A stretch of DNA of 64,000 nt from a bacterium (GTDB lineage Bacteria; Acidobacteriota; Blastocatellia; HR10): positions 1 through 64,000 of the forward strand of contig JBEPZV010000001.1 in the NCBI GenBank assembly GCA_041640655.1, written 5' to 3'. Below the pieces are notes generated by a model that was not told where the DNA came from, did not search any database, and worked only from the letters and a program-made list of their open reading frames with translations. A program made the position numbers and the translations under genes. Positions 42,210-57,990 of the stretch are shown in pieces. Position 1 is the first letter of the stretch. Each line of letters opens with the position of its first letter.

Positions 42210-43028
42210 TTAAGAGGGTTTCCCCATCGAGAGATCGTGTGCTTTCCTTGAACGAAGCGCTTCGCCAAAGAGCGTGAAGATGCTTCCGGCGTGACGGACG
42301 TACCGCTCCAGCAAAAGCCCCAGCATCACCCCGTAAGCGATGTGGGCCGTGAGGCTCACCATGAGGATTCCGTAGCCCTGCTTGAGACCAAAGTAGCCGG
42401 TGTCCATCGCCACGACCATCGGTGGAGTGGTCATCATCCCGAGCTCGATGATCAAGCCCCAGATCAATCCTCCCCACCAGCGAGATTTTCCAACCACTAA
42501 GGCATAGGTCAACCCGAAGCAGGCCCCGACCCAATAGTGGTAGAGATAGCCGACGCTATCCGAAAACGTTGATGGTCCAACGGCCATCTGATCAAGCAGC
42601 AGCACGCCAAACATTCTGGGCATATTGCCCGGCATCAGCCCCATCTGAAACCCGGTCAATCGAATCGTGTCGAGGACAGCCGTCGTTGCGGCTCCGACCC
42701 AGAGGCCCGTCCAGATCCGGTTCGTGAGCCGTGTCATCTCCAAGCTTTTCGCAGTGATCCCGACCAGCACCAGCAATACCAGCGAGGGGATCAACGCCCA
42801 CTTCGCCAGCAACGGCATCTCAGGCATTCCCGGCGTCAGAGCTACGACCAAACTATTCGGTCCGATCGCCGCGACCACCAGCGCCAGCGCCGTGAGAATC
42901 AGTTCCAAGAGAGTAGCGCGGTGTGGGTAGGCTTCGGGTGGAGGGACCTCCCACCGCCTCCGCCACATGAAGATCGTGACGAGCCACCCGACCGCGACAA
43001 ACAAGATGTCAATCCAGGTGATCGGCAT
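42210..43028 (-). CDS. Met/His-rich multi-TM membrane protein
   Basis: MPGNMPRMFG, YHYW, AHIAYG. Confidence 0.75.
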   Translation of the reverse strand: MPITWIDILFVAVGWLVTIFMWRRRWEVPPPEAYPHRATLLELILTALALVVAAIGPNSLVVALTPGMPEMPLLAKWALIPSLVLLVLVGITAKSLEMTRLTNRIWTGLWVGAATTAVLDTIRLTGFQMGLMPGNMPRMFGVLLLDQMAVGPSTFSDSVGYLYHYWVGACFGLTYALVVGKSRWWGGLIWGLIIELGMMTTPPMVVAMDTGYFGLKQGYGILMVSLTAHIAYGVMLGLLLERYVRHAGSIFTLFGEALRSRKAHDLSMGKPS

Positions 43029-43044
43029 ACTCCCGCAACGGCGA

Positions 43045-43554
43045 TTACCGGGTTGCCTTTTCCACAATTTGAGCCACCATCGTGTCCATCATCTCCCCGG
43101 CCTTTTTGACTCCCTCATCACCGTAGCTGGAATAACCCGGTGAAAACTTGTAATAACTCACCACGGTCTTCCCATCCGACCGCTCCCAGACGTAAATCTT
43201 CCCTGGCATTTCGAGCCCGACCTCGGGATGCATCGGGAGTAACATCTTCCCCATGTCTGGCTTGCCGAACTCGATGGTCTTTGATCCCTTAATCCTCGCG
43301 CCTACCATGGTGAGCATGTTCTGGTGGTCAATAGTGGCGACGATCATCATCCCCCGCTCCTTGAGCGCCTTGATGAGATTGTCAACCGTCTGAGCAAAGG
43401 GATGCGCGGACACGACGTCTACTCGATTCCCCCTCTCCGTGCGCTGCGCCGGTTCGACAGGGGTCGCTCCCATCGGAGGCTTTTCCGAGGCGGCAACAAA
43501 AACCAAGCTTCCAGTGAGGACAACGAGCAACATGATGCGGTTCATGCTCTTCAT
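43045..43554 (-). CDS. Secreted DUF302 protein
   Basis: TIDHQ, FGKP, GLEMP.KIYVWE. Confidence 0.85.
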   Translation of the reverse strand: MKSMNRIMLLVVLTGSLVFVAASEKPPMGATPVEPAQRTERGNRVDVVSAHPFAQTVDNLIKALKERGMMIVATIDHQNMLTMVGARIKGSKTIEFGKPDMGKMLLPMHPEVGLEMPGKIYVWERSDGKTVVSYYKFSPGYSSYGDEGVKKAGEMMDTMVAQIVEKATR

Positions 43555-43660
43555 AGTCTTTCCTCCTTTCGTTGATTTTTTGCTGAGCCGTTTCCTGTCA
43601 TGCTCGAAGCGAATCTCTCACTCATCACCAATAACGTTCTACCACTGGTCCTACGCCTCC

Positions 43661-44029
43661 TTAATGGGCGCAGCAGGCGTCGTCGGTGATCGTCGCGGGT
43701 CGCCGCTGCGCCTGGCTTTCATACAGCAGCAGAGCCTTATGCACCCAGGCTTCGCCCGGGCAGCCGCCCATCGCCATCGCGACGTTCAGTATCTCGATCA
43801 TCTCTTCCCGCGTGACGCCGAGAGCGATCGCTTTCTCGACGTACATCCGCACGCACGGCTCGCACTTGATGATGGTGGAGATGGCCAGCGCCGTGAGCAC
43901 CTTCACCTTCGCGGGAAAGAGACCATCGGCATAGGCGACTTCCCGAATGCGAGCCAGGGCGTCATGAATCTCAGGACTCAACTCTGCCAAATCTACGGTG
44001 ATCATTCCCGTTCTTGTGTCTCTCGCCAT
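43661..44029 (-). CDS. AhpD/carboxymuconolactone decarboxylase family protein
   Basis: CEPC motif, GVTREE; C-terminal CCAH. Confidence 0.85.
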   Translation of the reverse strand: MARDTRTGMITVDLAELSPEIHDALARIREVAYADGLFPAKVKVLTALAISTIIKCEPCVRMYVEKAIALGVTREEMIEILNVAMAMGGCPGEAWVHKALLLYESQAQRRPATITDDACCAH

Positions 44030-44127
44030 CTTTTCTCCCTCCGAAAATGTTCCTGCGGCGCAAGCTCGACAGCTTGCGCTCCCTCTCTCCTCTCCCGGTT
44101 CGGATCAACCGGAGAAGACGTTCACCG

Positions 44128-45012
44128 TCACGGTTGAACCGCGCGCACCGCTCCGACTTTGTAGCCGAGCCGGTCAATCGCGGCTTTGAGCTGCTCCGCA
44201 TTGACTTTCGCCGGATCGTACTCAACCACGGCTTGACCTTTTTCATAGCTCGCCTCTACGGACTTGACGCCCGGCAACCGCGTGAGCGCTTGCTCGACGT
44301 TCACCGCACAGCCGGCGCAGTCCATGCCACGAATTTCGATCGTCGCGCGAGCCAGAACGGGCACGTCTTGCGGATGGCGGTTTGTGGCGGTGGTGAATGG
44401 CGCGCTCGCTGCCGAGGTTTTGGCGGCTGAGCCCGCACTCCGAAGAGCCTCTCCGTTCGCTTTCGATGCGGAGCCCGATCGCGCAACGGCATCTCGCGCC
44501 GATTCGGCCGCCAGCGCGGGCGAGTCGGTTTGAGGAGGTTGGGATGGCGCTCGCTCAACAGGTTCCGCCCCCGTCAGCTTGTTCGTTTGTGACTGCAAAT
44601 CGCCTGCCGGATCAGTGTCGGGCGCCCCATGGGAACCCCGTATCGCCTGCGTCTTCTGCTTGGGTGAGAGGAGCGCCCAGACCGCCCCGGAGTAATACGG
44701 AAACGCGGCGAAGGCGATGACAAGACCCGTGGCCAGCCACAGCAGGATCTTATTCCACCGACCCACCGACGGGCGCGTCGCGCACACGCTCCCATCGGCG
44801 CAATGTACTTCCTGCTTGCGATAGGTGAAGTAAAACCCCAGCCCGAGCAGACCGAAAGTCAGCGCCAGCAGATAGGGCCGCCAGGCCTCGAACACGGCCG
44901 CCGCGCCGAAACTCCCCAACCCGGCGACCGCAGCCACAATCGGCCCCAGGCAGCAAAGCGACGCCGTAATGGCCGCCATCACGGATGCGACGAGCGTTGT
45001 CTCTCTTTTCAT
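44128..45012 (-). CDS. merT: MerT-HMA (MerP-like) fusion
   Basis: ASLCCLGP, WRPY, C.DG.VC, FPYY; C-terminal GMDCAGC. Confidence 0.88.
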   Translation of the reverse strand: MKRETTLVASVMAAITASLCCLGPIVAAVAGLGSFGAAAVFEAWRPYLLALTFGLLGLGFYFTYRKQEVHCADGSVCATRPSVGRWNKILLWLATGLVIAFAAFPYYSGAVWALLSPKQKTQAIRGSHGAPDTDPAGDLQSQTNKLTGAEPVERAPSQPPQTDSPALAAESARDAVARSGSASKANGEALRSAGSAAKTSAASAPFTTATNRHPQDVPVLARATIEIRGMDCAGCAVNVEQALTRLPGVKSVEASYEKGQAVVEYDPAKVNAEQLKAAIDRLGYKVGAVRAVQP

Positions 45013-45029
45013 GGTTTGTACCCTCCATT

Positions 45030-45496
45030 GCTTGTTCGTTGAGAGAAGCCCCGAAGAAAATGCTCGATGACCGGACAGGCTTTGTTGTCGGCGATAGCCC
45101 ACTCGCAGGTGGCTTCGTATCCCGCCAACTCGCGCCTCCGTCGGGGGTGAGCGCAGCATATCGGCGGTGCCGATCCTCAAGTTCCCTCGTTCGCCACCTA
45201 TGAGAGCAGTGATCCGAGTCCGTCGGCTCGGCCCCGACCGGCGCGCCGATTTCCTCCAGCGTGAACCCGAATCTCCTGACCCGCTCGATCAAGGTGATCC
45301 GTTCGATCACGCGCGGGCACTCCACGCGATTCGGAGATCGCGTGGGGACCCCGTTCGGATCAAAGAGACGATAGCCGCTCCGGCTCCGCGCCGCTTGAGG
45401 CCACAAGCCCCGTTGCTCAGAGCAACAGAGCCCGCCCCGGCTGACGCCGCTTCGCGCCTCCACCTCGCCGATCTTGAGCCCGGCCTTGTCCGTCAT
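45030..45496 (-). pseudogene. Degenerate MerR-family regulator with REP insert at 45315-45352
   Basis: LKIGEV...SGYRLFDP[14 aa]RVIER...GFTLEEI, then frameshifted relative to paralog 49851-50291. Confidence 0.78.
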
Positions 45497-45516
45497 CGCT
45501 CGGTTCTCACGCTCCG

Positions 45517-45548
45517 AGTGTAAGCCCTGGAACGAACTCCAGAGTCAA
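45517..45548 (-). promoter_or_regulatory. MerR/ZntR-type promoter-operator
   Basis: TTGACT-20 bp-TACACT, dyad CTGGA..TCCAG. Confidence 0.82.
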
Positions 45549-45574
45549 GGGCCTTTTGGACGAGACCGACCCTC

Positions 45575-45689
45575 GGGGTTCCCACGCGATCCCTCCGATC
45601 GCGTAGGGTGCTCCCGGCGTGTGTCCGGTTCTCATGCTCCAAAGGGACGACGTGATGGAGTACCCATCTCTAGATCGCCTGGGGTGCCC
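45575..45689. repeat. Two REP-like element copies
   Basis: ggggttcccacgcgatc..gatcgcgtagggtgctc and ...ctagatcgcctggggtgccc. Confidence 0.72.
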
Positions 45690-45933
45690 TTCATAGCCCG
45701 GCGTAGCACGCTGGAGAGGCAATGGTTCGGTTCGATCAAGTCCCCATCGGAAACGCCATCAATCGCCTTCCCGACGGTTTTTATTTCGCCGCTTCGGGGC
45801 TCCAATGATGAACCGGTGGCTTCTTCAGCGTGGTGGGCTTGGGCTCTTGCAGGTCCCCCTTTGGGGGCCGAAGACCCCTCCACCTTCACACTCAACCCGG
45901 ACTTTCCGACCTCCTCCCGGTGAACTAACCGGG

Positions 45934-46467
45934 TTATTGGTTGGGGCGTTGTGATGTTAAGTCGAAACTCTCTACGGCCAGGACGAACACGCCGTCTTTT
46001 CGTTCGAGCAGTTTCCCCCTCAGCGTGACGTCCTGATTCTGAATTCCTTCTGTTGCCTTCAGCTTCCTGAACTGTTCGTTCTTGGCGAGTACGAACACCT
46101 CTCCAGCGTTTCGGGGTCTAATGGTCCACTCCTTCGAGGTTGAGTTGACCCGCCCAATGACCGTGATTTCGATCTCTTTGACGGGATCAAAACCCAACTC
46201 GTCCTTGAGCACCGAGAGGATTCTCCTCACCTCGAAGGGAGTTTGGGCGCTGGCCTCAAGCTCAACAACACCGGAGCGCGAATAAGTGGCCTTTTCGACG
46301 CCAGCCTGGCGCCGGAGCGCAGCCCTCATCGTCTCCGGTCAAAGGAACTTCAGGGACTTATTCGCTCCGACGTCCCCGACAACCGTGAGGCGAATCGGCG
46401 CCTCCTGTGCTCCCACTGGTAAAGAGGCACAAAACAAGAGCAGTACGATCATTGAGACCCTCGTCAT
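45934..46467 (-). CDS. Putative selenoprotein: secreted HMA-like protein (Sec codon 46339-46341)
   Basis: ORFs 46339-46524 and 45934-46329 are in one frame joined by TGA; the TGA aligns with the CPLU Sec of paralog 53017-53580; hairpin 46296-46314. Confidence 0.72.
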
Positions 46468-46616
46468 AATCGCCCCCTCCTCAGAAAAGAGTGGCGCAGA
46501 CTTCAGTCTGCGCGAGGTTTTCATCGTTTCTGGGCGTCCTCATGGACGCCATGGATAACTCCCCGAAACTCATAAGTCTGGAGAGAAACCCGGCAGCTCG
46601 CTTCACCCGACCGATC

Positions 46617-47015
46617 TCATCGGCCGCAGGAATTCCCCCGCCAATACTTTCCCCATACTCGTTCCGGCAAGAGAGTCAACGCGCAGCCGCCCAGGATCAC
46701 GGCCAGGCCGATCCCCATCCACCCCGTGGCCGAGAGCGACACCAGCCCCACACCGTGAGCCAAAGAGACGCCCGCCCCGATCAAAAACAACGGCCCCGTG
46801 AAATAACAATGCACTCGCCCACAGCGAGCGGCATTCACAAGGCATCCCGCTCCGGCTACACCAAGCGAAACCGACCAGAGCACCGCCCGAAGGCTCGGGC
46901 TTGTGAAAAAGCCAACGGCGAAGACCGCGAGCGGCAGTTTCCATACAATCAGCGAAACCCACTTGCTCGCGACGAGATCTTTCGGCTCAGCGCCACCACA
47001 ACAGTCTGCACTCAT
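46617..47015 (-). CDS. Cys-rich membrane protein (mer-operon-associated type)
   Basis: N-terminal CC; CLVNAARCGRVHC; 4 TM. Confidence 0.75.
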   Translation of the reverse strand: MSADCCGGAEPKDLVASKWVSLIVWKLPLAVFAVGFFTSPSLRAVLWSVSLGVAGAGCLVNAARCGRVHCYFTGPLFLIGAGVSLAHGVGLVSLSATGWMGIGLAVILGGCALTLLPERVWGKYWRGNSCGR

Positions 47016-47024
47016 GGCTTCACC

Positions 47025-47552
47025 TCACGTCTCCGTCACGGCGTAGCCATCGGGCATCGGGGCCGCGACAGCTTCCTCCCGCCTTCTTGTCGAATCCGAT
47101 CGCTTCAGCGCTCTGAGCACAACCCCGGTCACCACGCCGAGGCAACACCGGCCCGACGGATTCATGATCTCACAGGCGCATCGGCCGGCCTTGACCTGCG
47201 CCTTGATGTAATCGGGAATCGTCGTTCGTCCCGTCGCCGCGATCTCATCGCGCACCATCTTCTCCGTGACGCCGAAGCAATAGCAGATCGGCACCGGGTC
47301 TTCGGTCTCCTTCACCCCCACCCGCACGCGCACGTCACTTTTGTAGAAGTACGCGTCGGCCTCGTTGGAGAAGTACACGACCGGACACGTGGGCGTCGCG
47401 CAGAAGAAGTGGGGATGATCGGTCAGACGCGCTACCGCCGACTCCACAAGCAGATGCTCCATCGTCCGCCGCGTGACGGGCTTCCCCTTCCGCCCACACA
47501 AGCGGCAGTGGGCGGAATGGACCACGATCGGCACCTGGCAACATTCGGACAT
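47025..47552 (-). CDS. CopZ zinc-binding/BFD-like [2Fe-2S] metallochaperone
   Basis: CRLCG, FC.TPTCPVVYF, ICYCF, CACE..NPSGRCC. Confidence 0.85.
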   Translation of the reverse strand: MSECCQVPIVVHSAHCRLCGRKGKPVTRRTMEHLLVESAVARLTDHPHFFCATPTCPVVYFSNEADAYFYKSDVRVRVGVKETEDPVPICYCFGVTEKMVRDEIAATGRTTIPDYIKAQVKAGRCACEIMNPSGRCCLGVVTGVVLRALKRSDSTRRREEAVAAPMPDGYAVTET

Positions 47553-47588
47553 GCGTCTTTCACCTCCTTGAGCGACCGGGCTCGTCTG

Positions 47589-48941
47589 TCAGACCATGTA
47601 GCTCACGTCTGAGCAACTGCTCGGATAGGCATAAGGCATCCGCTTCAGATCAGCCGCGCGAAGCCCCAATCTAATGGCCAGGCCAAACAGATTGATGACC
47701 TCCTCGGCATGAGGCCCCAGCAAATGCGCGCCGAGAATCCGATCGCTCCCCTCCTCGACGAGCACCTTGAATCCTGAATGCGTCATTCCCACTCGGCGCG
47801 ACGAATACCAGCCGGATGTATCCTCGCGCTTGACCCTGAACGTCAACCCCTCCGCGCGAGCCTTCTCTTCGTGCAACCCCACCGATGCCAGAGGCGGGAT
47901 CGTGAAGACGACCGTGGGCACCCCCGTGTAATCCGGGCGGCGGTGATTCCCTTCGAGGAGATTACTGGCCACGACCTGCCCTTCGATGGCGGCCACAGGC
48001 GTCAGCGGCGGGCCGCCGCTCGCCGCCACATCGCCGGCCGCGTAGACCGCCGGATTCGAGATGCTCTGGAGATATTCGTTGACGAGGACGCCTCGCCGAT
48101 CGCTCGCCACGCCCGCCACGTCCAGGTTGAGATCCTCGATGTCCGGCGCGCGCCCCGCACCGTGCACCACGAGATCGGCTTCAAACGTGTGCTCCACGCC
48201 TCCAGCGCGAGCCTTCACGATCAGGCCGCCCGATCGCCGCTCGATGGCCTCAACCGAGGTGTCGAGTCGAACGTCTATGCCGATGTCTCGCGTCGCCTGC
48301 ACGAGTCTCTCCACCAGATCCGGATCGAACCCTTTCAGCGGGCGCGACCCGCGATGGAGGATCCGAGCGTGAGCGCCCGCCCGCGCCGCCACATGCGCGA
48401 ACTCGAAGGAGATGTATCCTCCGCCGACGAAGACGATGCGCTCCGGGAGCCGGTCCAACTCCAGGAAGTCATCGCTCGTCGTCAGGAACTCTTCACCCGG
48501 AATCCCGAGCCGGGCCGGGCGCGCGCCCGTCGCGATGACAACATGCCGGGCCACCAACTCTTCATCCCCCACGGCCACAGCCGTCGGAGCCACGAAGCGG
48601 GCTCGACCGTGCACGGTCACGATCCCGGCTTGAGCGAATCGCTTCTCTCGGTTTTCCGGAATCGGATCGGTAAACGTGCGCTTGAAGCGCATCAAGTCCG
48701 ACCACTCGATCCGACACCCATCCGAGGCGATCCCTTTGCCCGTCATTCTGCGCGCCCAGTCCACGACTTCGGCGGCTCCCACGAGAACTTTCTTCGGATC
48801 GCAACCGCGCAAGGCACACGTCCCGCCAAACGGCCTCGAATCAATGACGGCGACGCTCCATCCGGCTGCCCGACACCGATAGGCCACCGTCGCAGCCGCC
48901 GTTCCCGTCCCGATGACGATGAGATCGAATTGTCGCCCCAT
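47589..48941 (-). CDS. Pyridine nucleotide-disulfide oxidoreductase (class I; lacks the MerA C-terminal CC)
   Basis: GGTCALRGCDPKK, GGGYI, GDV, ILGAH; ends YPSSCSDVSYMV. Confidence 0.9.
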   Translation of the reverse strand: MGRQFDLIVIGTGTAAATVAYRCRAAGWSVAVIDSRPFGGTCALRGCDPKKVLVGAAEVVDWARRMTGKGIASDGCRIEWSDLMRFKRTFTDPIPENREKRFAQAGIVTVHGRARFVAPTAVAVGDEELVARHVVIATGARPARLGIPGEEFLTTSDDFLELDRLPERIVFVGGGYISFEFAHVAARAGAHARILHRGSRPLKGFDPDLVERLVQATRDIGIDVRLDTSVEAIERRSGGLIVKARAGGVEHTFEADLVVHGAGRAPDIEDLNLDVAGVASDRRGVLVNEYLQSISNPAVYAAGDVAASGGPPLTPVAAIEGQVVASNLLEGNHRRPDYTGVPTVVFTIPPLASVGLHEEKARAEGLTFRVKREDTSGWYSSRRVGMTHSGFKVLVEEGSDRILGAHLLGPHAEEVINLFGLAIRLGLRAADLKRMPYAYPSSCSDVSYMV

Positions 48942-48952
48942 GATCGCCTCCC

Positions 48953-49801
48953 TCACAGGACGGCCTTGAAGCCGGTCCTGTTGATCGCGTCGGCCACCTG
49001 CTCGAGCGTGACGCGTGCCGGATCGAACGTCACGACGGCGTGCTTCTTCTCGACACTGACCTCTACAGCCTTCACCCCATCGCGCCGCATGAGCGCCTGC
49101 CGGACCGACGCCGCACACCCGGCACAGGTCATCCCTTCGACGGGAATGGTCGCCGTCACGGCCTCGATCGTGAAGCCGGCTTCCTTGACCGCCTCCACAA
49201 GCTTTTCTAACCGGATCCGCTCGGGATCGTACTCGACCAGGGCTTCGCCCTTTTCGTAGCTGGCCGTCGCCGAGCGCACTCCGGGAAGAGCTCCAAGCGC
49301 CGACTCCAGAGCGGCCGCGCACCCGCCGCAGGTCATGCCGCCGACTTCCAGCCGCACGGGGTCCCCACGCGATCCGGAGATCGCGTGGGGTGCCCGCACG
49401 CTTATCGGCCGCTCGACCGCAGCCGATGCGACCGATCCCCCTTGCTCCTTCGACGGACCGTTCAACGCCGCCCAGAATCGCCCGGAATAATAGGGAAACG
49501 CGGCAAAGAGCACGATCACGACCGTAGCGATCCACAGGATCGTCTTCTGCCATCGCGAGGCCTTCCTGGTCGCGCATGCCCCATCGGCGCACGCCGCCTC
49601 TTTCCGGCGATAGGTGAGATAAAACGCCGCCGCCAGCAGCGCGAACGTCACGACGAGCAAATAGGGTCGCCACGCCTCGAAGGCGGCCGCCGCGCCGAAA
49701 CTCCCCAACCCCACGACCGCAGCTACAATCGGCCCCAAGCAACAGAGCGAAGCCGTGATCGCCCCAATGAGCGAAGCTCCAAGTGCGATCTTCTCCCTCA
49801 T
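48953..49801 (-). CDS. merT: MerT-HMA-HMA fusion (REP insert at 49358-49395)
   Basis: ASLCCLGP; GMTCGGC and GMTCAGC. Confidence 0.9.
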   Translation of the reverse strand: MREKIALGASLIGAITASLCCLGPIVAAVVGLGSFGAAAAFEAWRPYLLVVTFALLAAAFYLTYRRKEAACADGACATRKASRWQKTILWIATVVIVLFAAFPYYSGRFWAALNGPSKEQGGSVASAAVERPISVRAPHAISGSRGDPVRLEVGGMTCGGCAAALESALGALPGVRSATASYEKGEALVEYDPERIRLEKLVEAVKEAGFTIEAVTATIPVEGMTCAGCAASVRQALMRRDGVKAVEVSVEKKHAVVTFDPARVTLEQVADAINRTGFKAVL

Positions 49802-49850
49802 CGTCCCTCCTTTCACACGGGGGTCCCCATGGGGCGCCCCCGACATCCCT

Positions 49851-50291
49851 TCACTCCCGTTTCCGCCCCCGCCGGGGCTTTGACGCGCGAGAGGAAGGGT
49901 GAAGAAAATCCTCGATGACCGGACAGCTCTTCCGCCCGGCGACGGCGCGCTCGCACTCGGCCTTATAGGCCGAGAGCTCGCGACGCAATCGTTTGATCTC
50001 CTCGTACCGCCGATCGAGATCCTCGAGCTTGCGCGCGATCACCTGCAGAACCTCCGCGCACGTCCGCGGTTCGGCCGTCGGTAATTGGAGCAATTGTTTG
50101 ATCTCCTCGAGCGTGAAGCCGAAGCTCTGCGCCCGCTTGATGAAGCGCAGGCGCTCGATCACGCGCGGATCGTACAGCCGATACCCGCTCTGCGTCCGAG
50201 CAGCTCTCGGCAAAAGCCCCAACCGTTCGTAGTAGCGGAGCGTATCCACGCTCACGCCACATTCGGTGGCCACCTGGCCGATCTTCAACAC
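49851..50291 (-). CDS. Heavy-metal MerR-family regulator
   Basis: LKIGQVA..TLRYYE..GYRLY..GFTLEEI; C...C..CP metal ligands. Confidence 0.92.
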   Translation of the reverse strand: MLKIGQVATECGVSVDTLRYYERLGLLPRAARTQSGYRLYDPRVIERLRFIKRAQSFGFTLEEIKQLLQLPTAEPRTCAEVLQVIARKLEDLDRRYEEIKRLRRELSAYKAECERAVAGRKSCPVIEDFLHPSSRASKPRRGRKRE

Positions 50292-50325
50292 CGCCGCTTC
50301 CCCTCCGCTCGTTTTCACAACCGCC

Positions 50326-50357
50326 AGTATAAACCCTGGACCTATCTCCAGAGTCAA
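50326..50357 (-). promoter_or_regulatory. MerR/ZntR-type promoter-operator
   Basis: TTGACT-20 bp-TATACT, dyad CTGGA..TCCAG. Confidence 0.85.
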
Positions 50358-50536
50358 GCGAAAGCTTCAGGTGTGCCACCCCAAGCCAGGCACGAGCGGT
50401 TCCCTGGCGGCCATCGCATCTACAGCGATGACGTGCCGATTGCGTATCACCGAATATGTCGAGCGGGGTCTCGCCGGCGCGTGAGTTCGAGCTCCATCGT
50501 TTCACCCGAACATGGGTGACTTGTTGAGTCGCCCCT

Positions 50537-52720
50537 TCAATTGGGTCGGCGCGCGCGTTCGATCGCCTCCAGCGCTGCTGCCAACCACTTCTCGCCCTGG
50601 CCGCCGAAGCCCACCTGCTCCAGGACCACGGTGCCTTCTTGACCGATCAGCCAGCTGCGCGGGATGCTCACAAGCGGCAAGACGCTCTCCACATACGAAG
50701 AGGCCGGGATGACCGGGAAACTGAAGCCGTGCTTGTTGACGTAAGGCTCCACCAATCCGAGATCCGCATCCACGTTGAACGTCAGCACGAGCACATCCGG
50801 GTGATCTTTCAGGCGTTCATAGAGCTTCTGCACGTAGGGCAGTTCCTCGCGGCAGGGGCCGCACCACGTCGCCCAGATATTGATGAACGTGATCTTGCCT
50901 CGGAGATCGGCCAGCCGCCAGGTTCGTCCTCGAAGGTCTTGAAGCTCGAAATCGGGAAGGGGCATCTGGCGCTCCTCCCATGCGCCGGGAGAGGCTTCCC
51001 CAATCGGGGCCGTTGCCCGCGCCAACCACGCATGCCATCCCTCAGTCGTTCCCCCAAGCTCTCTCCACAAGCGCTCGACTCGCTTCGTCAGGTCTTCTCT
51101 CGATGCGCCTCTCTCATCCGGCTCGGGCCCCTCCAGCAGCGCCTTTTGATAAAAGGCGAGGGCATCGAGCTTTCGGTTTTCGGCCTCGGCCAGCCGCGCC
51201 ATCCACTCCCAGTAGATCGCCTGACGTCGAGCGTGGAGGCGCTTTTCTTCGCTCGGAGCCGACTCTTGCGGTCTTCGCCGGACCAGAAAGTCTTCCATCT
51301 GAATGAGCACTTCGCGCGCCTTCTCCCGCCGGTTCATCTTCAGGTAGGCGTCGAGCAAGATCGGCCATCCGCGCCAGTAGCTGTAGTCCACGTTGCCTTG
51401 AAGGGCTTTTTTCGCCTCGGCCGAAAGGTCGTCGCGTCGGACGTCCCGCTCCGTTCTCCGTTCGATCTCGCGGAAGCCGCGCTCAATCAGTTCCGGGATG
51501 CGTTCGAGTCGAACGCCGCGCTTGAGATAGAGCTGAGCGACCTGAAGGGCCGGGGGCGGCAGGGCATAAAAGAGGTCGGACTGTTTTTCCGAAGCGCTCA
51601 GCAGGCGCTCGCCGATCGTCTCGATCTCGACAGAAGGGAGATCGTCCAGCTCGCTCGCGGCCTCAAGTCGTCTCAGCCATGGAGCGGGATGATCGGGCCA
51701 GCGCTGAATCCATTCCTCGGTTGCGCGGAAGAGGGCGCGATAGTACGCTCGACGCTTCTCCGGAGGGTCGGTCTCGCCGGGGCGAGGGTGAGCCGCGTTC
51801 CATCGGTCGTAGACGATGAGGGACATCACGCCGCTGGAGTGAGGGAATCGGCGCAGCATCTCCTCTTCCACCCAGCGAAGGCCCTGGGCGTCGCCGGTCA
51901 TCTCGTAGCCCGTGCGAAGCGTCAAAAGCCCGCGCAAGGTGTTGCCCAGCCCCAGATCGCGCAATCGCGTGAGGTCTTCTGCGATCTGTTTTCGGAGCCG
52001 CGGATGTTCCGTCACGGGCTTCGCCTGGAACTCCAGTCGCCACAGGGTTTGGTAATAGGAGAGGTCTTCGGGATCGGTCCGGCTCCGAAGCCGTACGCGC
52101 AGCTTTTGGGCGGCCTCGGCGAGGAACTCCCGATCGTCCATCCGGCCGGCAAGCTCATACGCCTCCACGCTCGAGGGGCAGAGCCTCATGAACGTCTCCA
52201 GATGGGCGCGCGCTTTCTGCAGATCTTTCCAGGGGCCCTGCAGATGGATTCGGGCCAGCGCCAGGTGAGCCAGCGGGAAGTCGGGCGCTCGCTCGATGGC
52301 CTTTTCGAGAAGCGCGATCGCCAGGTCGGTCTGTCGGCCGATGAGGCTGTTGCCGTACAGGTACAAAGCGAGAGGATCATGGGGCTGTCGTTCGAGTCGT
52401 GCCTTGTACTCGGCGATCAGCGAATCCAGCTCATCGTCCATGACCTGCTCGATGAAGCCCAGGTAGCGACGGTGGACGAAGGGATCGTCGGGAAATTGTC
52501 TCAACAGGGGGCGCAGGATGGCCAATCCTCGCTCTCGGCGTTGCTCTCGTCCCGTGCGCGCGTCATCATCGAAGGACAATTTCCGGAGGGCCAGTTTTAC
52601 TTCGGGAGATGGCTCACAAGGAGAGTTCACCGCTTGTGGCCACACAGAGGCTTTAAGCGTCACGGCGAGGACGCCGCTTAAAACGACCTGTCGCCACGTG
52701 ATCTTCTTGTTGGCCTTCAT
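50537..52720 (-). CDS. Secreted TPR protein with C-terminal TlpA/redoxin domain
   Basis: Signal peptide, TPR-like helices, WATWCGPC. Confidence 0.87.
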   Translation of the reverse strand: MKANKKITWRQVVLSGVLAVTLKASVWPQAVNSPCEPSPEVKLALRKLSFDDDARTGREQRRERGLAILRPLLRQFPDDPFVHRRYLGFIEQVMDDELDSLIAEYKARLERQPHDPLALYLYGNSLIGRQTDLAIALLEKAIERAPDFPLAHLALARIHLQGPWKDLQKARAHLETFMRLCPSSVEAYELAGRMDDREFLAEAAQKLRVRLRSRTDPEDLSYYQTLWRLEFQAKPVTEHPRLRKQIAEDLTRLRDLGLGNTLRGLLTLRTGYEMTGDAQGLRWVEEEMLRRFPHSSGVMSLIVYDRWNAAHPRPGETDPPEKRRAYYRALFRATEEWIQRWPDHPAPWLRRLEAASELDDLPSVEIETIGERLLSASEKQSDLFYALPPPALQVAQLYLKRGVRLERIPELIERGFREIERRTERDVRRDDLSAEAKKALQGNVDYSYWRGWPILLDAYLKMNRREKAREVLIQMEDFLVRRRPQESAPSEEKRLHARRQAIYWEWMARLAEAENRKLDALAFYQKALLEGPEPDERGASREDLTKRVERLWRELGGTTEGWHAWLARATAPIGEASPGAWEERQMPLPDFELQDLRGRTWRLADLRGKITFINIWATWCGPCREELPYVQKLYERLKDHPDVLVLTFNVDADLGLVEPYVNKHGFSFPVIPASSYVESVLPLVSIPRSWLIGQEGTVVLEQVGFGGQGEKWLAAALEAIERARRPN

Positions 52721-53016
52721 CGTGCCCTCCCGATCGGAAGGAACTCTGCCAGAAGATAATGCCACATTCAAGCGCGGCGAGGCTATGTACGTCACCGGCT
52801 CGACAAGGGCTGCCGCCATGGCACGTGAGGCATCGAACCAGGGCGTTCCGTCGTGCGGCGGCACTCGGGCCTGTCTGCCGACAGGCGGATGACCGTGATG
52901 GCCGCCGTGCTCTCGCATCCTGGGTCAAGGGAGAACCCTTGCTCTTCGCCTTTTCGAGCGCGTTATTGAGAGGGTTACTTTTTGCGCCGCGGCTCTAGAG
53001 CTCGCTCGGACTCAGA

Positions 53017-53580
53017 TCAGATTCCCCGCCGCAACAGGCGCAACACCACTTTCCCGCCAAGTCCAAGACCATCCTCGCCCAATGGCTCAAAGTTCTCAAC
53101 GGTGAGACCGGGCGGACGATCTGCATGGCTGGGATGAAGCTTCCCAGTCACGCGGATTTTCTTCCCCACGAGGTCAGTCCGTTTGCTGAGTGCGGCTGCC
53201 TCTGCTCCACCGGCCAACACAAACGGATGGTCCAACCCGGGAACATCGAGCGTCGGGAATTCTCCCTGCGCAATCAATGTCCCATCAACCACCACCACAA
53301 TAGCGGCTGGGGTGAAGCCCGCATCCCGGAGCGCCTGGGGGATCCGAACGGGATCGAAGGATTTTCCGGGCCGGGGAAACACCTCCACTTCTCCTCTCGC
53401 CAGGTTCACGTCGGCACGATCAACGCCTTCCAGGCGCTGGAGGGCTTTCTGTGCCCCTCGCGCTCAAAGGGGACAGAAGAGGCCGTCAATTTTAACCGTC
53501 GCCCTCACCACCTGAGCCGATACCGGCGCGGCGGAAAAAAAGCCAAGCAGAAGCAAAAGCCATAGGCTTGGTCTGTTCAT
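53017..53580 (-). CDS. Putative selenoprotein: secreted HMA-domain protein with CxxU (Sec codon 53464-53466)
   Basis: MNRPSLWLL..VKIDGLFCPL-TGA-ARGAQKALQRLEGV; in frame with ORF 53017-53409; hairpin 53421-53439. Confidence 0.85.
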
Positions 53581-53635
53581 CAGCTTTCTCATGTTCAAAC
53601 CCTCCGAAGAAATCGGGTCGCGTCATCCGGAGCTC

Positions 53636-54649
53636 CTAGAACAAAAATCGGAATCCGAGAAGAAAGGTCGAACCAGGCTCCGGTTGCCTCCCGTTGAGGG
53701 CCCGGACGACCGGAATCGGAGCCGAGAATTCGACCAAAAATCGGTCGCTGAGGAAGTACTGGATTCCCGGTGAGACCGAAAGCGTCGTCCCGCCGGTGTC
53801 AGGCACTTCCTTGCCCTGGCGGCGGGCGCGAGCTTGCCAGGTGCCGTTCATTTCCACGACGAGATACGCCCCATGGCGGAACAACCGATCAAGGGCCCTG
53901 CGCGGCCACCCGGCCCGAGCGCCTGCCGCCACGTTGTTCGATGAGATGACAAAGCGCGACAGCGCGGCGTCAAACCGGAGCCGGTCGCCCACGGACAGAC
54001 CCCCGCGGTTCTTGGTCGCATGAGTGTACTCGAAATCGCCACTGAAGACGTACTTCAACCTCACCGCCTTCTGGAAGATCATCCCGCCGGTGTACTCGAC
54101 CGCCCCCGTCGAGAACCGGTCAGCGCCCGTCGGCACCTGCAATCCAAAAACTCCCGACAGCCGCGTCATCCCACCGGGGGCGTTGCGACTGTAGAGCCCA
54201 TCGTACTGAACGAACACTCGCGCGTCGGCCAACCCACTCACGCGCTCTCGCTCTGCTTCACCTCCCATCCGATGGGTCACATCTACGATCGCGTAAGGCT
54301 GAGCCAGGATGACCATCCAGCCCGGAGAAAATCCGTAGACAACGGTCACCGCCGGAACATACTGAGTGACGCCGACCGATCCTTCCTCCATTCGAAGAGA
54401 AGAATGCCGAATTTCAACGGATGAGCGGATGAGCGTCGCCCGATTGAAGAGCGTCCGGGCGCTCGGCGCCACGATGGTCTGCGCGCGCCCGTCGGCCGAT
54501 GAAAGCCCCATGCCGCCGATGAGCACGAGCGCGATGCTCCAGGACGCCGGTCTCCGAAATCGCGCAGGCTTCCCGGCCGGCTTTCCCCAAGGCCCAGCCG
54601 TCGAGGCGAAGGCCGCTACAAATTCCGACGTTTCCGACCGACGCGGCAT
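53636..54649 (-). CDS. Outer-membrane beta-barrel 'transporter' (MetA-pathway/phenol degradation-like); start uncertain
   Basis: GLAD, PTG, TGGTTLSVSPG, terminal F. Confidence 0.75.
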   Translation of the reverse strand: MPRRSETSEFVAAFASTAGPWGKPAGKPARFRRPASWSIALVLIGGMGLSSADGRAQTIVAPSARTLFNRATLIRSSVEIRHSSLRMEEGSVGVTQYVPAVTVVYGFSPGWMVILAQPYAIVDVTHRMGGEAERERVSGLADARVFVQYDGLYSRNAPGGMTRLSGVFGLQVPTGADRFSTGAVEYTGGMIFQKAVRLKYVFSGDFEYTHATKNRGGLSVGDRLRFDAALSRFVISSNNVAAGARAGWPRRALDRLFRHGAYLVVEMNGTWQARARRQGKEVPDTGGTTLSVSPGIQYFLSDRFLVEFSAPIPVVRALNGRQPEPGSTFLLGFRFLF

Positions 54650-54663
54650 GTGACGACCCGTTG

Positions 54664-54963
54664 TCAAAAGAGGCGGAGGCTCCAAAGTAAGGCCGAGACG
54701 CCCGTCCCCGCCCACACCGTGAAGCGAGCCGTTCGCCCTCCCTGCCCCTTCACGTTCACCAGATAATGCGCGCGCAGCAGAGCGTACACGGTGAGGGCCC
54801 CGAAGATCGCCTTCCCGCGGGCGAAGATCACGTGCGCGGCGACGGCCCCTGCTGTCCCGAGCAGGGCGAACACCGTTGGCGCCAGTCAGCACCAGGGGAG
54901 CGACGCCAGTACCGCCACCCCACTGCAGATCGGCCCCCACCGCCAAGCGCGCCGCTTCTCCAT
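54664..54963 (-). CDS. Putative selenoprotein: MerT-like transporter with CU (Sec codon 54886-54888)
   Basis: AAGGAGG RBS; MEKRR..LASLPWC-TGA-LAPTVFALLG; 3 TM; hairpin 54847-54866. Confidence 0.78.
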
Positions 54964-55053
54964 CTCGGCCTCCTTTGATCCACCGGGGAGTGCCCGCGCA
55001 GACGCTCCCCGGGGCACCCACTGCGATCTATACTCGAGTAGTGACTGACGCCG

Positions 55054-55227
55054 TCACTTCTTCAGCGGACAGGCATCGCGGCAGATGATCTTGCCCGTGA
55101 GCGGGCAGACGATCCGACCCGGGCAGCTCGATGGGCTCTCGGACGATGCCTTGAACCCATAGAGCGCTCCCGATCCGATCGCTCCGCTCAACACGAGCAG
55201 CAACACGATCCGGCGCATTCGTCGCAT
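55054..55227 (-). CDS. 57-aa secreted/anchored Cys-rich peptide (below ORF track cutoff)
   Basis: MRRMRRIVLLLVLSGAIGSGALYGFKASSESPSSCPGRIVCPLTGKIICRDACPLKK; GGAGG RBS right after merR. Confidence 0.72.
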   Translation of the reverse strand: MRRMRRIVLLLVLSGAIGSGALYGFKASSESPSSCPGRIVCPLTGKIICRDACPLKK

Positions 55228-55230
55228 CGG

Positions 55231-55680
55231 TCATCCCTCCTTTCCGTGATCTGGGCGGTGATGCCCGGCCAGCGTCATGATGAGCGAGCAGACGTAGGGC
55301 GAGGAGTCTGCTTGATCGGGCATCGCGTCCAGTTGGGCGAGCAGAGCGGATAGCTCCCGGCGAAAGGCTCGCAGTTCGGCGATCTTTCGATCCAGCGCCC
55401 GAAGCTTTTCCCGAAGCAAGGCTCGGACTCGCGCACATGGCGATCGCCCCTCGCGGCTGAGCATGACAAGCTCTCGAATCTCCGCCAGCGACAGCCCCAG
55501 CGCCTGCGCCGCTCGAATGAAGCGCAGCCGCATGAGCGCCGCCTCATCGTAGAGGCGATAGCCCGAACGCGTCCGCGCCGCCCGCCCCAACAATCCCTCC
55601 CGCTCGTAATAGCGAACCGTCTGAGGCTTCACCCCCACGGCCCGCGCCAGCTCGCCGATGTAAAACGTCCGACCCGACAT
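55231..55680 (-). CDS. Heavy-metal MerR-family regulator
   Basis: YIGELA..TVRYYE..GYRLY..GLSLAEI; SPC, VC. Confidence 0.92.
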   Translation of the reverse strand: MSGRTFYIGELARAVGVKPQTVRYYEREGLLGRAARTRSGYRLYDEAALMRLRFIRAAQALGLSLAEIRELVMLSREGRSPCARVRALLREKLRALDRKIAELRAFRRELSALLAQLDAMPDQADSSPYVCSLIMTLAGHHRPDHGKEG

Positions 55681-55704
55681 CTCACGCCTCCTTTCACACT
55701 CGCT

Positions 55705-55736
55705 ATTCTAAACCTTGCAGCCAACTGCAAGGTCAA
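55705..55736 (-). promoter_or_regulatory. MerR-type promoter-operator
   Basis: TTGACC-20 bp-TAGAAT with perfect dyad ACCTTGCAG-N4-CTGCAAGGT. Confidence 0.88.
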
Positions 55737-55817
55737 GCCCCATTTTTCAGCGCGGGCAGAGGGAGCGCCCCTGGAGAGCTTCGGTGTGTAATCTCGATTA
55801 CTGAACGGCTCGGTCGG

Positions 55818-56594
55818 ATGGCGTTAAGCTGGTGGCTCGATGCGAATTTCCGATCTCTGCGAATTTCCAATCTGCCGGAGACGATCATGACCGATCGAAG
55901 AATACCGGACGGCATTGTCCGAGGCCGGAACGCGAGGCCCTCCATCCGGCCGCGCCTACGGCCGACTATTTCGGCCCACACGATACTCTCGACAGCCGCG
56001 CTGAGATGCTCAGGAGCACGAGGGACCGTCCGCCTCTCGCATGCACGCGTTGTTGTGATCGCTGTCTCCCTGGTTGCCGGAATATCGTTCACTGCCGGCA
56101 GCAGGGGCGCATGGTCACGCGTCTCGGCTCATGATTCGACTCTCGCCGTTGCCGCCGACAAGGATGCTGATGAGAGGGGTCGGCCCGCGCCGGAGCTCGA
56201 GCTTGTGGATGTTCGCGGTCGCCCGGTGCGTTTGGCCGCCCTCCGGGGTAAAGTCGTGATCGTGAATTTGTGGGCGACCTGGTGCCCTCCCTGCGTGATG
56301 GAAGTCCCGACCTTCAAGAAGCTCCACGCGACGTATCGAGATCGGGGGCTGGAGATCATCGCCATCTCTCTAGACGAGGACGAACGAGAGGTCAAAACGT
56401 TCATCCGGGAACACGCCCTCCCCTACACCGTCATCCTCGGCGATGAACAGATCGCGGAGAAGTTCGGCGCGTTGACGGGACTCCCCATGACGTTTTTCAT
56501 TGATCGGAAAGGGCGCATCCGTGCCGAGCACGCCGGTTTCATGGACGAGGAAGATTTCGTCCGCGAGGTCGAACGATTGCTGTCGGAGCCGTGA
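55818..56594 (+). CDS. TlpA-family thiol:disulfide oxidoreductase (true start probably downstream)
   Basis: NLWATWCPPC, GLP.TF.IDRKG. Confidence 0.85.
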   Translation: MALSWWLDANFRSLRISNLPETIMTDRRIPDGIVRGRNARPSIRPRLRPTISAHTILSTAALRCSGARGTVRLSHARVVVIAVSLVAGISFTAGSRGAWSRVSAHDSTLAVAADKDADERGRPAPELELVDVRGRPVRLAALRGKVVIVNLWATWCPPCVMEVPTFKKLHATYRDRGLEIIAISLDEDEREVKTFIREHALPYTVILGDEQIAEKFGALTGLPMTFFIDRKGRIRAEHAGFMDEEDFVREVERLLSEP

Positions 56595-56715
56595 TTCATC
56601 CCGGCTCCGCTTCTCCTCTCGATGATGCGAATGTGGTAGACTCATGTTCCGTGACTCGCCGAAAACGGCCGACACGGGGTACAGATCGCAAGGGATGCCC
56701 TGAAGGAGGTGAGGA

Positions 56716-57828
56716 ATGATCGTGACGCTTCGACGATTCGGCCGGCTGACCGCGCCGCTTGTCGCTCTGTTGACGATGGGACTTATGAGCGCTGCTTCTC
56801 AGTTCCAGAAAGACAAACTCTTTGTCGTCACCCAATTTCCCCCGGAGTTGAACGATCCGGAGTTCATCCCCGCCACCCATCCCGACGGTGGCTACCTGGA
56901 TGACACCGAGACGGTGATGGGCATTGCGCTCGAGGGAGAGAGCCGGGCCTATCCGCTCCGGATCATGGCCTATCATCATGTGGTCAATGACGTCGTCAGG
57001 GGCCGCCCCATCGTCCTGGCCTACTGACCGGTCTGCGGGACGGGAGTCGGGTTCGACTCCGTGACACAGCAGGGGAGGCGGCTCATGTTTAAGCCGCACG
57101 GATTGTACAACGCCGAACTCGTGTTCGCCGACACCGAGACGGGAAGCGTCTGGTCGCTGACGAGCGGCGAGGCGATGGAGGGTCCGCTCGCAGGCCAAAG
57201 ACTCAACAAACTCGCGGTCGTGCAGACAACCTGGGCGAAGTGGAAACAGCTCCATCCCGACACGCTGATCGTTTCCAACCGGACGCCCCATCAAGCCCAC
57301 TACAAGCCGTTTCGCTGGCAGCCGCGCCAGCTCAGCTCCGTTTTCGAGCGCACGCTCACGCATCGAGATGAGCGACTGGGAAGAATGGAGCTGGTCCTGG
57401 CGGTGGCCCTGGGCGATGAACGCAAAGCCTATCCCTTATCCACGCTCAAGCAAGCGGGCGGCGTGGTGAACGATGTCGTCGGCGGCGTGCCGATCGTCGT
57501 CTTCTACGATCCACAGACGAACACCGCCGCCGCTTACGAGCGCAAGCTGGGCAAACGGGTGCTCCGCTTCGAGAACGCAGATCGGCAGGGCGAACGGGCA
57601 CCCCACGCGACCTCCAGTTCGCGTGGGGACCCCATACGGCTCGAGGCGGTGGATACGGCGACGCGTTCCCGGTGGAACCTGGCCGGTCGCGCCGAGTCGG
57701 GCCGACTGCGCGGCGAGCAACTTGCAGCCGTGCCGGCTCACACGGGAGCCTGGTACGCCTGGGCCGCCTACTTCCCGGATACGAAGATTTACACCTCGGC
57801 CGCTCGTCAAAGGGAGCGCCAGAAGTAG
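56716..57828 (+). CDS. Putative selenoprotein: DUF3179 protein, UPVC (Sec codon 57025-57027); REP insert at 57596-57633
   Basis: RAYP...HHVVND..PIVLAY-TGA-PVCGTG continues in frame into ORF 57061-57828; hairpin 57043-57060. Confidence 0.87.
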
Positions 57829-57844
57829 AGGCATATGACTGCGC

Positions 57845-57882
57845 GGGGTCCCCATGCGATCTATAGATCGCATGGGGTGCCC
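57845..57882. repeat. REP-like element (identical to 37861-37898)
   Basis: ggggtccccatgcgatctatagatcgcatggggtgccc. Confidence 0.9.
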
Positions 57883-57990
57883 GAGCGCCCATGTCACGTC
57901 TTTCGCGATCGCCGCCATCGGGTGTTCAAGCGGAGGTTCACGGAAAGGGACTCCGCATTCGGCCAAAATAGATTATGTGGAGGTCAACCG

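Follow-up and report, generated by a model that had tools for sequence, protein, structure and literature searches.

The window analysed here is a 64,000-nucleotide stretch of contig JBEPZV010000001.1 (assembly GCA_041640655.1; Acidobacteriota, Blastocatellia, HR10), and its subject is a pair of minus-strand genes, termed gene A and gene B, each of which carries a TGA at codon 43. We put at about 80% the probability that both are intact selenocysteine (Sec) genes and that their exported products, in which an HMA domain is joined to an oligonucleotide/oligosaccharide-binding (OB)-like domain, bind and pass on a soft metal, most likely Hg(II). On sequence grounds the two genes almost certainly encode Sec-containing exported HMA-OB proteins, and a metallochaperone role is suggested by their predicted fold and gene context. 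A preliminary description of this DNA had presented them as divergent paralogues of a secreted HMA-like family that keep a TGA and a hairpin at the same position. The features concerned are as follows.

Gene A, 45934..46467, minus strand: signal peptide, HMA-like fold with a lone Sec (KFLU, U43) and OB-like C-terminal domain
In-frame TGA of gene A, 46339..46341, minus strand: residue 43, read as Sec
Hairpin of gene A, 46296..46314, minus strand: candidate bacterial Sec insertion sequence (SECIS), 8 bp, loop GGC, CGGCGCCA-GGC-TGGCGTCG
Gene B, 53017..53592, minus strand: signal peptide, HMA domain with C-P-L-U (U43) and OB-like C-terminal domain
In-frame TGA of gene B, 53464..53466, minus strand: residue 43, read as Sec
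Hairpin of gene B, 53421..53439, minus strand: candidate bacterial SECIS, 8 bp, loop GGA, CAGCGCCT-GGA-AGGCGTTG

When the TGA is read through, gene A runs from an ATG at 46467 to 45937, with the stop codon TAA at 45934-45936, and encodes 177 amino acids; gene B runs from an ATG at 53592 to 53020, with the stop codon TGA at 53017-53019, and encodes 191. Ribosome-binding sites of the GGAGG type precede both start codons (GGAGGGGG for gene A and GGAGGG for gene B), and translation table 11 cuts both genes at codon 43. Each read-through product opens with a signal peptide and a strand, then has KFL-U (A) or CPL-U (B) as its motif, and continues through the remainder of the HMA-like domain into an extra domain of about 80 residues. 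The signal peptides end in A-Q, which is nearly invariant in the family alignments. Gene A has K at the position of the first Cys of gene B and an extra 6 residues ahead of the motif, which are modelled as a short helix. Most of what the preliminary description had read from the two genes was reproduced: the hairpin starts exactly 24 nucleotides past the TGA in both genes; the quoted peptides were exact and aligned without gaps from U onward; the F.LA, GKL and VE(N/S)F motifs were found in both genes; the first Cys is lost in gene A, which leaves a lone Sec; and both products have the export signal. The motif L.D..GF.P, said to occur in both, stands in gene A (LKDELGFDP) but not in gene B, where a 1-residue indel leaves the segment one residue shorter (LRDAGFTP).

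Since the pairwise similarity of the two products is weak (29 of 88 residues identical by BLASTP, 33%; E = 2e-4), relatives were gathered from same-genus, same-order and same-class genomes with stop codons read through. In the MAFFT family alignments (A1, 14 rows; A2, 25 rows), both U residues fell in a single invariant column, that of the second Cys of the HMA CxxC motif, which holds Cys in homologues; the two TGAs are equivalent, as had been proposed. A family profile run over 401 genomes of the class gave matches in 99 genomes, and 84 matches cover both domains, of which 83 were examined and one, in G373, was left out. Tabulation of the site showed TGA at the second position in 76 of the 83 relatives, Cys in 6 and TAA in 1, while at the first position 73 had Cys, 5 had TGA and 5 had some other residue. 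The site states CxxC, CxxU, UxxC, UxxU and xxxU are all represented among these genes, which were grouped into subtypes.

Subtype A, 5 genes: lone Sec, K/A/N-x-L-U
Subtype B, 6 genes: CPLU in 2, UGLU in 4
Subtype C, 4 genes: CPFC in 2, CPFU in 1, UPFC in 1
Subtype D, 66 genes plus 2 CSMC relatives: CGNU in 60, CGMU in 3, CGFU in 1, CGYC in 1, CGN-TAA in 1

According to the profile, the genome from which the window comes has one A-type and one B-type gene and no more. The second position is TGA in 5/5 A-type and 6/6 B-type genes; the first Cys ligand is missing from all five A-type genes, and the first Cys position is itself TGA (UGLU) in four of the six B-type genes. The A orthologues that carry the TGA are those of G002, G005, G006 and G194. 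Among the C-type relatives, which come from the same bacterial order, CPFC, CPFU and UPFC interchange. A side observation concerns two of these, which lie side by side as tandem paralogues (G010:C87:46108-47632, L017/L031), one UPFC, with TGA at the first Cys, and the other CPFC; their closest relative in G006 is CPFU, so that the position of Sec differs between near neighbours in the tree.

The hairpin is under constraint in the relatives. Its seven inner pairs are kept in all 11 A- and B-type genes, in which pair 28-44 is A-U in nine and G-C in two, pair 34-38 is U-A in three, A-U in five and unpaired in three, and pair 29-43 alternates between G-U and A-U; two compensatory pairs are found among these 11 hairpins. 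The stem spans the codons Q/R-R-L/Q ... G-V, and its Val codon is GTT, which accounts for 10.3% of Val codons in this genome, in 6/6 B-type and 3/5 A-type genes. The remaining two A-type genes have GTC, which covaries with CGG in place of CAG/CAA, and these two alone carry G at the pairing position. In all six B-type genes the stem codons CGC (Arg), CTG (Leu), GGC (Gly) and GTT are invariant and the flanking four-fold Ala/Leu codons vary. When synonymous recodings were drawn under the codon usage of the genome, all seven inner pairs survived in only 1150 of 20000 recodings of gene A (5.8%) and 575 of 20000 of gene B (2.9%). In 63 D-type genes, third codon positions were 95-100% conserved from +15 to +30 nucleotides after the TGA, compared to 35-59% in flanking four-fold codons, which is the signature of an RNA element overlapping coding sequence. 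Predicted hairpins with stems of 5-7 bp (RNAfold) and a G-containing apical loop of 4-6 nucleotides were also found in the SelD gene, two DUF3179 genes and a C-U MerT-like gene of the same genome; in the bSECISearch model, about 16-37 nucleotides separate the UGA from an apical loop with a G. The UxxU orthologues have a second hairpin nearer the UGAs, of 7 and 6 bp versus 5 bp in the CxxU genes.

The Sec reading of both TGAs, as proposed earlier, is also consistent with the machinery found in the genome. A tRNA-Sec was recovered at 75.2 bits (gathering score, 47) and was called tRNA-SeC with anticodon TCA by ARAGORN; SelA scored 483 bits, the SelB wing domain 70.3 bits, and SelD 365 bits, the last itself carrying one in-frame TGA (GAGU). 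SelB was found in 369 of the 401 class genomes, a tally that includes five unpublished ones and that cannot separate carriers of the family from non-carriers at this frequency. Among the genomes listed, the TGA carriers lacking a SelB-wing match were G170 and G191, both of which have matches to SelA and tRNA-Sec. TGA is also the ordinary stop codon of gene B and of the MerR, mini-peptide and C-U genes upstream of it. An alternative genetic code was considered and rejected, as TGA terminates gene B and its neighbours.

Structure prediction gave confident models of both products. For gene B, Pfam HMA (PF00403) matched residues 32-93 at 37.1 bits (cut-off, 24.8). AlphaFold returned a mean predicted local distance difference test (pLDDT) score of 81.9 and a predicted template modelling (pTM) score of 0.73 for gene B, and values of 88.6 and 0.80 for gene A, and residues of about 25 to 95 in both models form an HMA fold. 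By Foldseek, the gene B model superposed on CopZ (6ff2; TM score, 0.87) and MerP (1osd; 0.81), and, by VIA, residues 23-98 of the gene A model superposed on CsoZ (6ff1; Z = 9.3, root mean square deviation of 1.9 over 67 residues) and Hg-NmerA (2kt3; Z = 6.8). The predicted models place Sec where helix 1 begins, which is the metal-ligand position; the canonical CxxC pair is absent from both (C-P-L-U in B and K-F-L-U in A), and the second ligand is Sec. Strand 4 continues into a C-terminal beta domain whose order of strands and helix (DSSP) fits that of an OB fold, a five-stranded barrel in which the helix comes between strands 3 and 4. Residues 99-177 of gene A matched PriB (3fhw; Z = 7.9), SSB (5gqo; Z = 7.6) and the NlpE C-domain (2z4h; Z = 7.3), values below 8 that, by the tool's own caution, may reflect merely a common arrangement, and matches of this domain to Pfam DUF4431 and DUF5818 were below cut-off. 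The HMA-like fold and the extra C-terminal domain of the preliminary description are borne out by these models, the latter with an OB-like order of elements in both.

A quick maximum-likelihood tree was built from 104 rows, comprising all A, B and C genes, 18 random U-form D genes (of 64), the CGYC gene, two CSMC genes and 68 Cys-form representatives; 46 D rows and the TAA copy were excluded. A and B together made up one side of a branch with a Shimodaira-Hasegawa-like approximate likelihood ratio test (SH-aLRT) support of 83, the A clade (100) on a very long branch and the B clade with a support of 87, and at least five changes of Sec/Cys state are needed on the tree. The data are consistent with A and B being old paralogues that inherited the Sec codon and its hairpin; the tree being unrooted and built on few columns, a Sec-bearing ancestor of A and B fits it and is not proven by it. 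Such an ancestor would explain the shared hairpin position.

The genes around gene B form a module on the same strand.

Outer-membrane barrel gene, 53636..54649, minus strand: Pfam Phenol_MetA_deg, 1.2e-8; directly upstream of gene B
MerT-like membrane protein of 98 amino acids with W-C-U, 54664..54963, minus strand: in-frame TGA at 54886-54888, followed by a hairpin
Cys-rich mini-peptide gene, 57 amino acids, 55054..55227, minus strand: between the MerR and C-U membrane protein genes
MerR-family regulator, 55231..55680, minus strand: Pfam MerR_1 and MerR-DNA-bind; head of the gene B module

Gene B closes this run, after the MerR gene, the mini-peptide gene, the C-U MerT-like gene and the barrel gene. 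A homologous barrel gene lies directly upstream in 8/8 other B/C-type loci, and the barrel gene at 53636-54649 is likely the partner of gene B. Open frames of about 480 to 520 amino acids are present in about 64 relatives and make up most of the D-type copies; a barrel-like C-terminal extension was read in two of them, one of which (L024) matched Pfam Phenol_MetA_deg. The regulator at 55231-55680 was below cut-off for the NCBIfam ZntR, MerR and CadR models, and TlpA/ResA-like thioredoxin genes lie at 50537-52918 and 55818-56594 in the same island. As a separate observation, the MerR, Cys-rich peptide and C-U genes share one frame through their TGA stops.

The cluster of gene A lies on the minus strand as well.

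MerR, 49851-50357, minus strand: upstream in the gene A cluster
MerT with two HMA domains, 48953-49846, minus strand: MerTP_fusion, 189.9 bits (cut-off, 180)
Pyridine-nucleotide disulfide oxidoreductase, 47589 to about 48950, minus strand: below both the MerA and the glutathione reductase (GR) cut-offs
CopZ_Nterm_CC/BFD protein, 47025-47552, minus strand: CopZ_Nterm_CC, 142.9 (cut-off, 100)
Membrane protein of 132 amino acids, 46617..47015, minus strand: C..NA..C.R.HC..TGP motif; directly upstream of gene A
Second MerT-HMA fusion gene, 44128..45012, minus strand: Pfam MerT and HMA; MerTP_fusion, 134 bits, below 180; downstream of gene A

A gene for an AhpD-like CxxC protein follows the cluster. 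The membrane protein at 46617-47015, for which no Pfam or NCBIfam match was found, has 44 homologues, and its C..NA..C.R.HC..TGP motif is invariant in 26/26 aligned. It is 43% identical over 87 amino acids (E = 5e-17) to the N-terminal module of P0092, a protein of 382 amino acids in which this membrane-protein module is fused to an HMA-OB-HMA chain. A homologue lies upstream of the A-type genes in G002 and G006, the order in G006 being MerR, membrane protein, A, MerTP, AhpD-like; none was matched in the A locus of G005, and the G194 locus is too short to tell. This membrane protein is likely the partner of gene A.

Other observations in the window touch these clusters less directly. At 37383-38210 (minus strand), an NmerA-type HMA domain is joined to the first ~140 residues of a mercuric reductase and is followed by a glucodextranase gene; its appearance is that of a merA cut short. 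The MerR-like open reading frame (ORF) at 44750-45496 (minus strand), situated between gene A and the second MerT-HMA gene, matches MerR-DNA-bind at 23 bits, below cut-off, holds a repeat copy and may be a decayed regulator. The repeat in question is a palindrome of ~40 nucleotides found at eight sites of the window (about 912, 30771, 37860, 45322, 49343-49405, 57595, 57844 and 61545), with 20 blastn-short matches in the genome; a 63-nucleotide copy folds at -42.8 kcal/mol. Several copies lie in frame within genes, one being the 'RAPHAISGSRGDPVR' linker of the MerT-HMA protein, and repeat-like peptides are also present in a DUF3179 gene, the weak MerR-like ORF and the NmerA-MerA remnant. Two DUF3179 genes lie on the plus strand at 56716-57828 (AYUPVC, TGA at residue 104) and 58722-59642 (TWUPLC, TGA at residue 93); gene callers would split them, and both fit the UxxC selenoprotein family, DUF3179 with U-P-x-C, that is catalogued in the consulted part of PMC13188914.

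Besides the weak pairwise similarity, several findings weigh against A and B being related Sec genes that serve Hg(II) handling. Gene A has no Pfam HMA match, the grouping of A with B is only moderately supported, and the A branch is very long. The fold stability of the hairpins is unexceptional, 447 of 2000 recodings of gene A and 681 of 2000 of gene B being locally as stable or more; the stability test was replaced by the stem-retention and codon-usage tests given above, and the evidence is the specific conserved stem and not its strength. Counted from the U of the UGA, the hairpin starts at 27 nucleotides in A and B, versus about 17 to 22 in the benchmark genes of the same genome. A scan of window positions 43000-60000 with Rfam, at E up to 1, gave 0 matches; Rfam is not known to include a general model for bacterial SECIS elements. 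A GTG or ATG lies 12 nucleotides past the TGA in 5/5 A-type genes, which makes a separate start conceivable. The G002 orthologue of gene A (L026/L030, G002:C7:36053-36582) has its first ~40 codons in another frame, which from the sequence would be either a frameshift or an assembly error, and one D-type copy (L051, G235:C1:91603-92085) has TAA at the site, a second G235 copy keeping TGA. As to the metal, the MerR-type regulators of the island are all below their cut-offs, with close scores for MerR, ZntR, CueR and CadR; the oxidoreductase at 47589 to about 48950, besides falling below both its cut-offs, ends without a C-terminal Cys pair such as MerA has; and the merA at 37383-38210 looks truncated.

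These last points bear on the strongest of the alternatives, that A and B are metal-binding selenoproteins but handle Cu(I), Ag(I) or Au(I), or take up or sequester metal, and do not serve to detoxify Hg(II). This is a serious minority view, to which we give clearly less credence than to Hg(II). The best curated match of gene B is a CopZ-family model (NF047957, 36.8 bits), the regulators score alike for the different metals, no intact MerA was found in the island, and a CopZ_Nterm_CC protein is encoded in the A cluster. On the other hand, MerT-type transporter genes flank both A and B, one of them above the MerTP cut-off; the MerR at 49851-50357 has, as we read its sequence, three Cys with spacings of 34 and 9 residues, which we take to be Hg-MerR-like; and the NmerA-MerA remnant lies in the same window. 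Hg(II) is favoured here on account of the MerT-type neighbours.

A redox centre or a selenium-sulfur carrier working with TlpA-like reductases, rather than a metal carrier, would also be compatible with genuine selenoproteins. Most prokaryotic selenoproteins are thought to be redox active, according to the consulted parts of PMC9312934 and PMC13188914; moreover, the island has two TlpA/ResA-like genes, the A cluster is followed by a gene for an AhpD-like CxxC protein, and a lone Sec is unable to chelate a metal on its own. We consider this unlikely. The predicted fold is that of HMA and not of thioredoxin, with Sec in the place of a metal ligand; metal sensors and transporters (MerR, MerT-HMA and CopZ type) are encoded alongside; Sec-HMA families catalogued in the same part of PMC13188914 are named metal-binding; and the TlpA-like proteins may do no more than hold the selenol and thiol in reduced form.

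If the TGAs were true stops, A and B would be pseudogenes, or each locus would be two genes, a short ORF for the signal peptide and a downstream ORF translated on its own. Gene callers do split them in this way. A search of public proteins with B found 152 relatives, and among the best 120 of the 152 most were pieces of 105 to 131 amino acids that cover 51-66% of B; the five such pieces that were read (P0154, P0155, P0156, P0182 and P0211) were the part downstream of the TGA. The start codons 12 nucleotides past the TGA in the A-type genes, a GTG 57 nucleotides past it in gene B (ORF 53017-53409), the displaced frame in G002 and the D-type TAA point the same way. Nevertheless, the TGA stands at the exact column in 76 of 83 relatives, with Cys in 6, a pattern on which the pseudogene reading was rejected. 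The reading frame of the 42 codons upstream is conserved, and from these codons come the signal peptide and strand beta-1 of what is confidently modelled as a single chain; both would be missing if the downstream ORFs were translated independently, the second of the refuting conditions named in the preliminary description. The downstream pieces alone are without an export signal, and a post-TGA start in the B-type genes would remove helix 1. The Cys forms, in addition, are single uninterrupted proteins: 68 of the 150 best representatives are 155 to 200 amino acids long, the two-domain length, and carry G..C..C. True stops are very improbable on this evidence. Least probable of all is read-through of the UGA with Trp, Cys or Gly inserted, whether through near-cognate suppression or through a different genetic code, as the W called at both TGAs in P0157 and P0159, two public B-type relatives spanning the site, might suggest. 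Homologues have Cys in this column, which makes it a classic Sec/Cys pair; the genome has the full Sec machinery, and SelB is widespread in the class; the codon is followed by a conserved hairpin whose synonymous sites are constrained; and TGA ends many genes, gene B included, which indicates a genome without a TGA-sense code.

We infer the following for Sec insertion, the metal and the direction of transfer in the preferred case of intact Sec genes for exported soft-metal carriers. UGA codon 43 would be decoded as Sec by SelB and tRNA-Sec, directed by the hairpin 24 nucleotides downstream. The products would be periplasmic, with a ferredoxin-like HMA domain that holds a selenol in its metal-binding loop and is joined directly to the OB-like domain; the site would be Cys-x-x-Sec in B, often Sec-x-x-Sec in its orthologues, and a lone Sec in A. 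They would bind a thiophilic ion, most probably Hg(II) but conceivably Cu(I), Ag(I) or Au(I), and hand it over between partners in the envelope. B may work with the upstream outer-membrane barrel and the C-U MerT-like inner-membrane protein, shuttling between them. A, under MerR-type control, may have as partners the adjoining Cys/His-motif membrane protein and the MerT-HMA importers; having one ligand only, it would have its coordination completed by a partner or as a dimer. The TlpA-like proteins would keep the selenol/thiol site reduced.

A more far-reaching proposal, which we regard as tentative and rather doubtful, is a relay lined with selenium that would take Hg(II)-like soft metals all the way across the Gram-negative envelope, in which barrel-docked Sec-HMA-OB proteins would deliver to Sec/Cys inner-membrane carriers. 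The carriers would be the C-U MerT-like protein and the C..NA..C.R.HC protein, and the Sec-HMA-OB module would be fused to the barrel in ~64 relatives. A would then act as a monodentate selenolate shuttle whose coordination is complete only in a transient complex with its membrane partner, and the OB domain would be the docking module. Were this true, the family would record repeated switching among CxxC, CxxU, UxxC, UxxU and xxxU.

Sec as a metal ligand rather than a redox centre is rare, and the bacterial cases are almost all predicted. The natural series of CxxC, CxxU, UxxC, UxxU and lone U in close relatives makes the gain of selenium over sulfur in soft-metal binding and transfer directly testable. 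Judged from sequence, the A/B family is a large and mostly unannotated one in Acidobacteria, with members in predicted mercury-type metal-handling clusters. Annotation splits this abundant envelope family, the TGA being present in so many of the genes examined, and gene callers and surveys of mer genes miss A/B-like genes unless TGA read-through is allowed. The association with an outer-membrane barrel and with two unnamed membrane proteins suggests that metal is routed through the outer membrane, for which classical mer systems have no counterpart.

Among known systems, A and B resemble MerP (TIGR02052; 1osd and 1afi) in being exported, in having an HMA fold with its ligands at the junction of the loop and helix 1 in the predicted models, and in being encoded next to MerT-type transporter genes and a MerR-type regulator. 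Gene A has MerR and MerT-HMA genes around it, and the B module includes a C-U MerT-like gene, but no intact merA was found in the island. They differ from MerP in scoring 25.5 (B) and 12.5 bits (A) against the TIGR02052 cut-off of 92.55, in the added ~80-residue OB-like domain, in having Sec for the second Cys, in the missing first Cys of gene A, and in the pairing of gene B with an outer-membrane barrel. A selenoprotein row 'Mercuric transport protein MerP' with 2 sequences stands in the selenoproteome table of the Global Ocean Sampling (GOS) study, as seen in the consulted part of PMC2398784. NF041115, 'UxxU_metal_bind', appears as a 'putative mercuric reductase' with UxxU in the consulted parts of PMC13188914 and PMC9312934. 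A and B share with it an HMA domain with Sec at the metal site, UxxU being present in 4/6 B-type genes, and the best curated match of the G005 B-type orthologue is this model (49.3 bits); the model has 74 positions and a single domain, without the signal peptide and OB architecture, and the window genes are CxxU (B) and xxxU (A). Its cut-off of 95 was reached neither by B (36.0 bits) nor by the G005 orthologue, and A gave no match.

Sec in soft-metal transport is known from further entries. A 'putative mercuric transport protein' with C/SxxU and a P-type ATPase Sec-HMA (UxxC) are catalogued in the same part of PMC13188914, and MerT-family CU selenoproteins are mentioned in the consulted portion of bioRxiv 10.1101/2022.07.06.499078. 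NF045683, the MerT/CopZ fusion-like selenoprotein, is likewise a case of Sec ligands in mercury-type or soft-metal transport and recalls the C-U MerT-like gene of the B module. However, the Sec MerT proteins and P-type ATPases are membrane transporters, whereas A and B are predicted soluble exported two-domain proteins, and B scored 19.2 bits on NF045683 (cut-off, 375). The Cys-form periplasmic HMA-OB proteins (such as P0004, P0008 and P0017) have the same architecture, length and conserved G, F.L and GKL as A and B, but have CxxC and no TGA; their annotation goes no further than 'heavy-metal-associated domain-containing protein' or 'copper chaperone CopZ', and no functional study of them was found in literature searches that were aimed at selenoproteins and not at the Cys family. 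The barrel upstream of B and one of the two scanned D-type extensions (L024) resemble the Phenol_MetA_deg channels (PF13557, COG4313). Known members of COG4313/Phenol_MetA_deg are channels for hydrophobic molecules; in the present family, in contrast, a metal-sensor operon encodes the barrel, either alongside a Sec-HMA-OB module or in one chain with it.

The preliminary description had called the family possibly undescribed, and this stands in part. Sec-containing HMA and MerP-type proteins are already catalogued (NF041115, NF045683 and, in its consulted part, PMC2398784), but the two-domain family reaches no curated cut-off of its own: in Pfam and NCBIfam scans of A, B and four relatives, no family cut-off was reached beyond HMA. 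The selenoprotein literature, in its consulted portions, holds Sec-HMA, MerP and MerT entries only and no HMA-plus-OB or barrel-fused family, nor does the lone-Sec form appear there or in the curated libraries, although supplementary tables may list some, and the consulted text of PMC13188914 contains none of the terms 'PF00403', 'PF13557' and 'Acidobacteri'. What is new here is the recognition of A and B as paralogues of one two-domain family, together with the C/U table, the range of site states, the barrel-fused D type and the evidence from synonymous sites.

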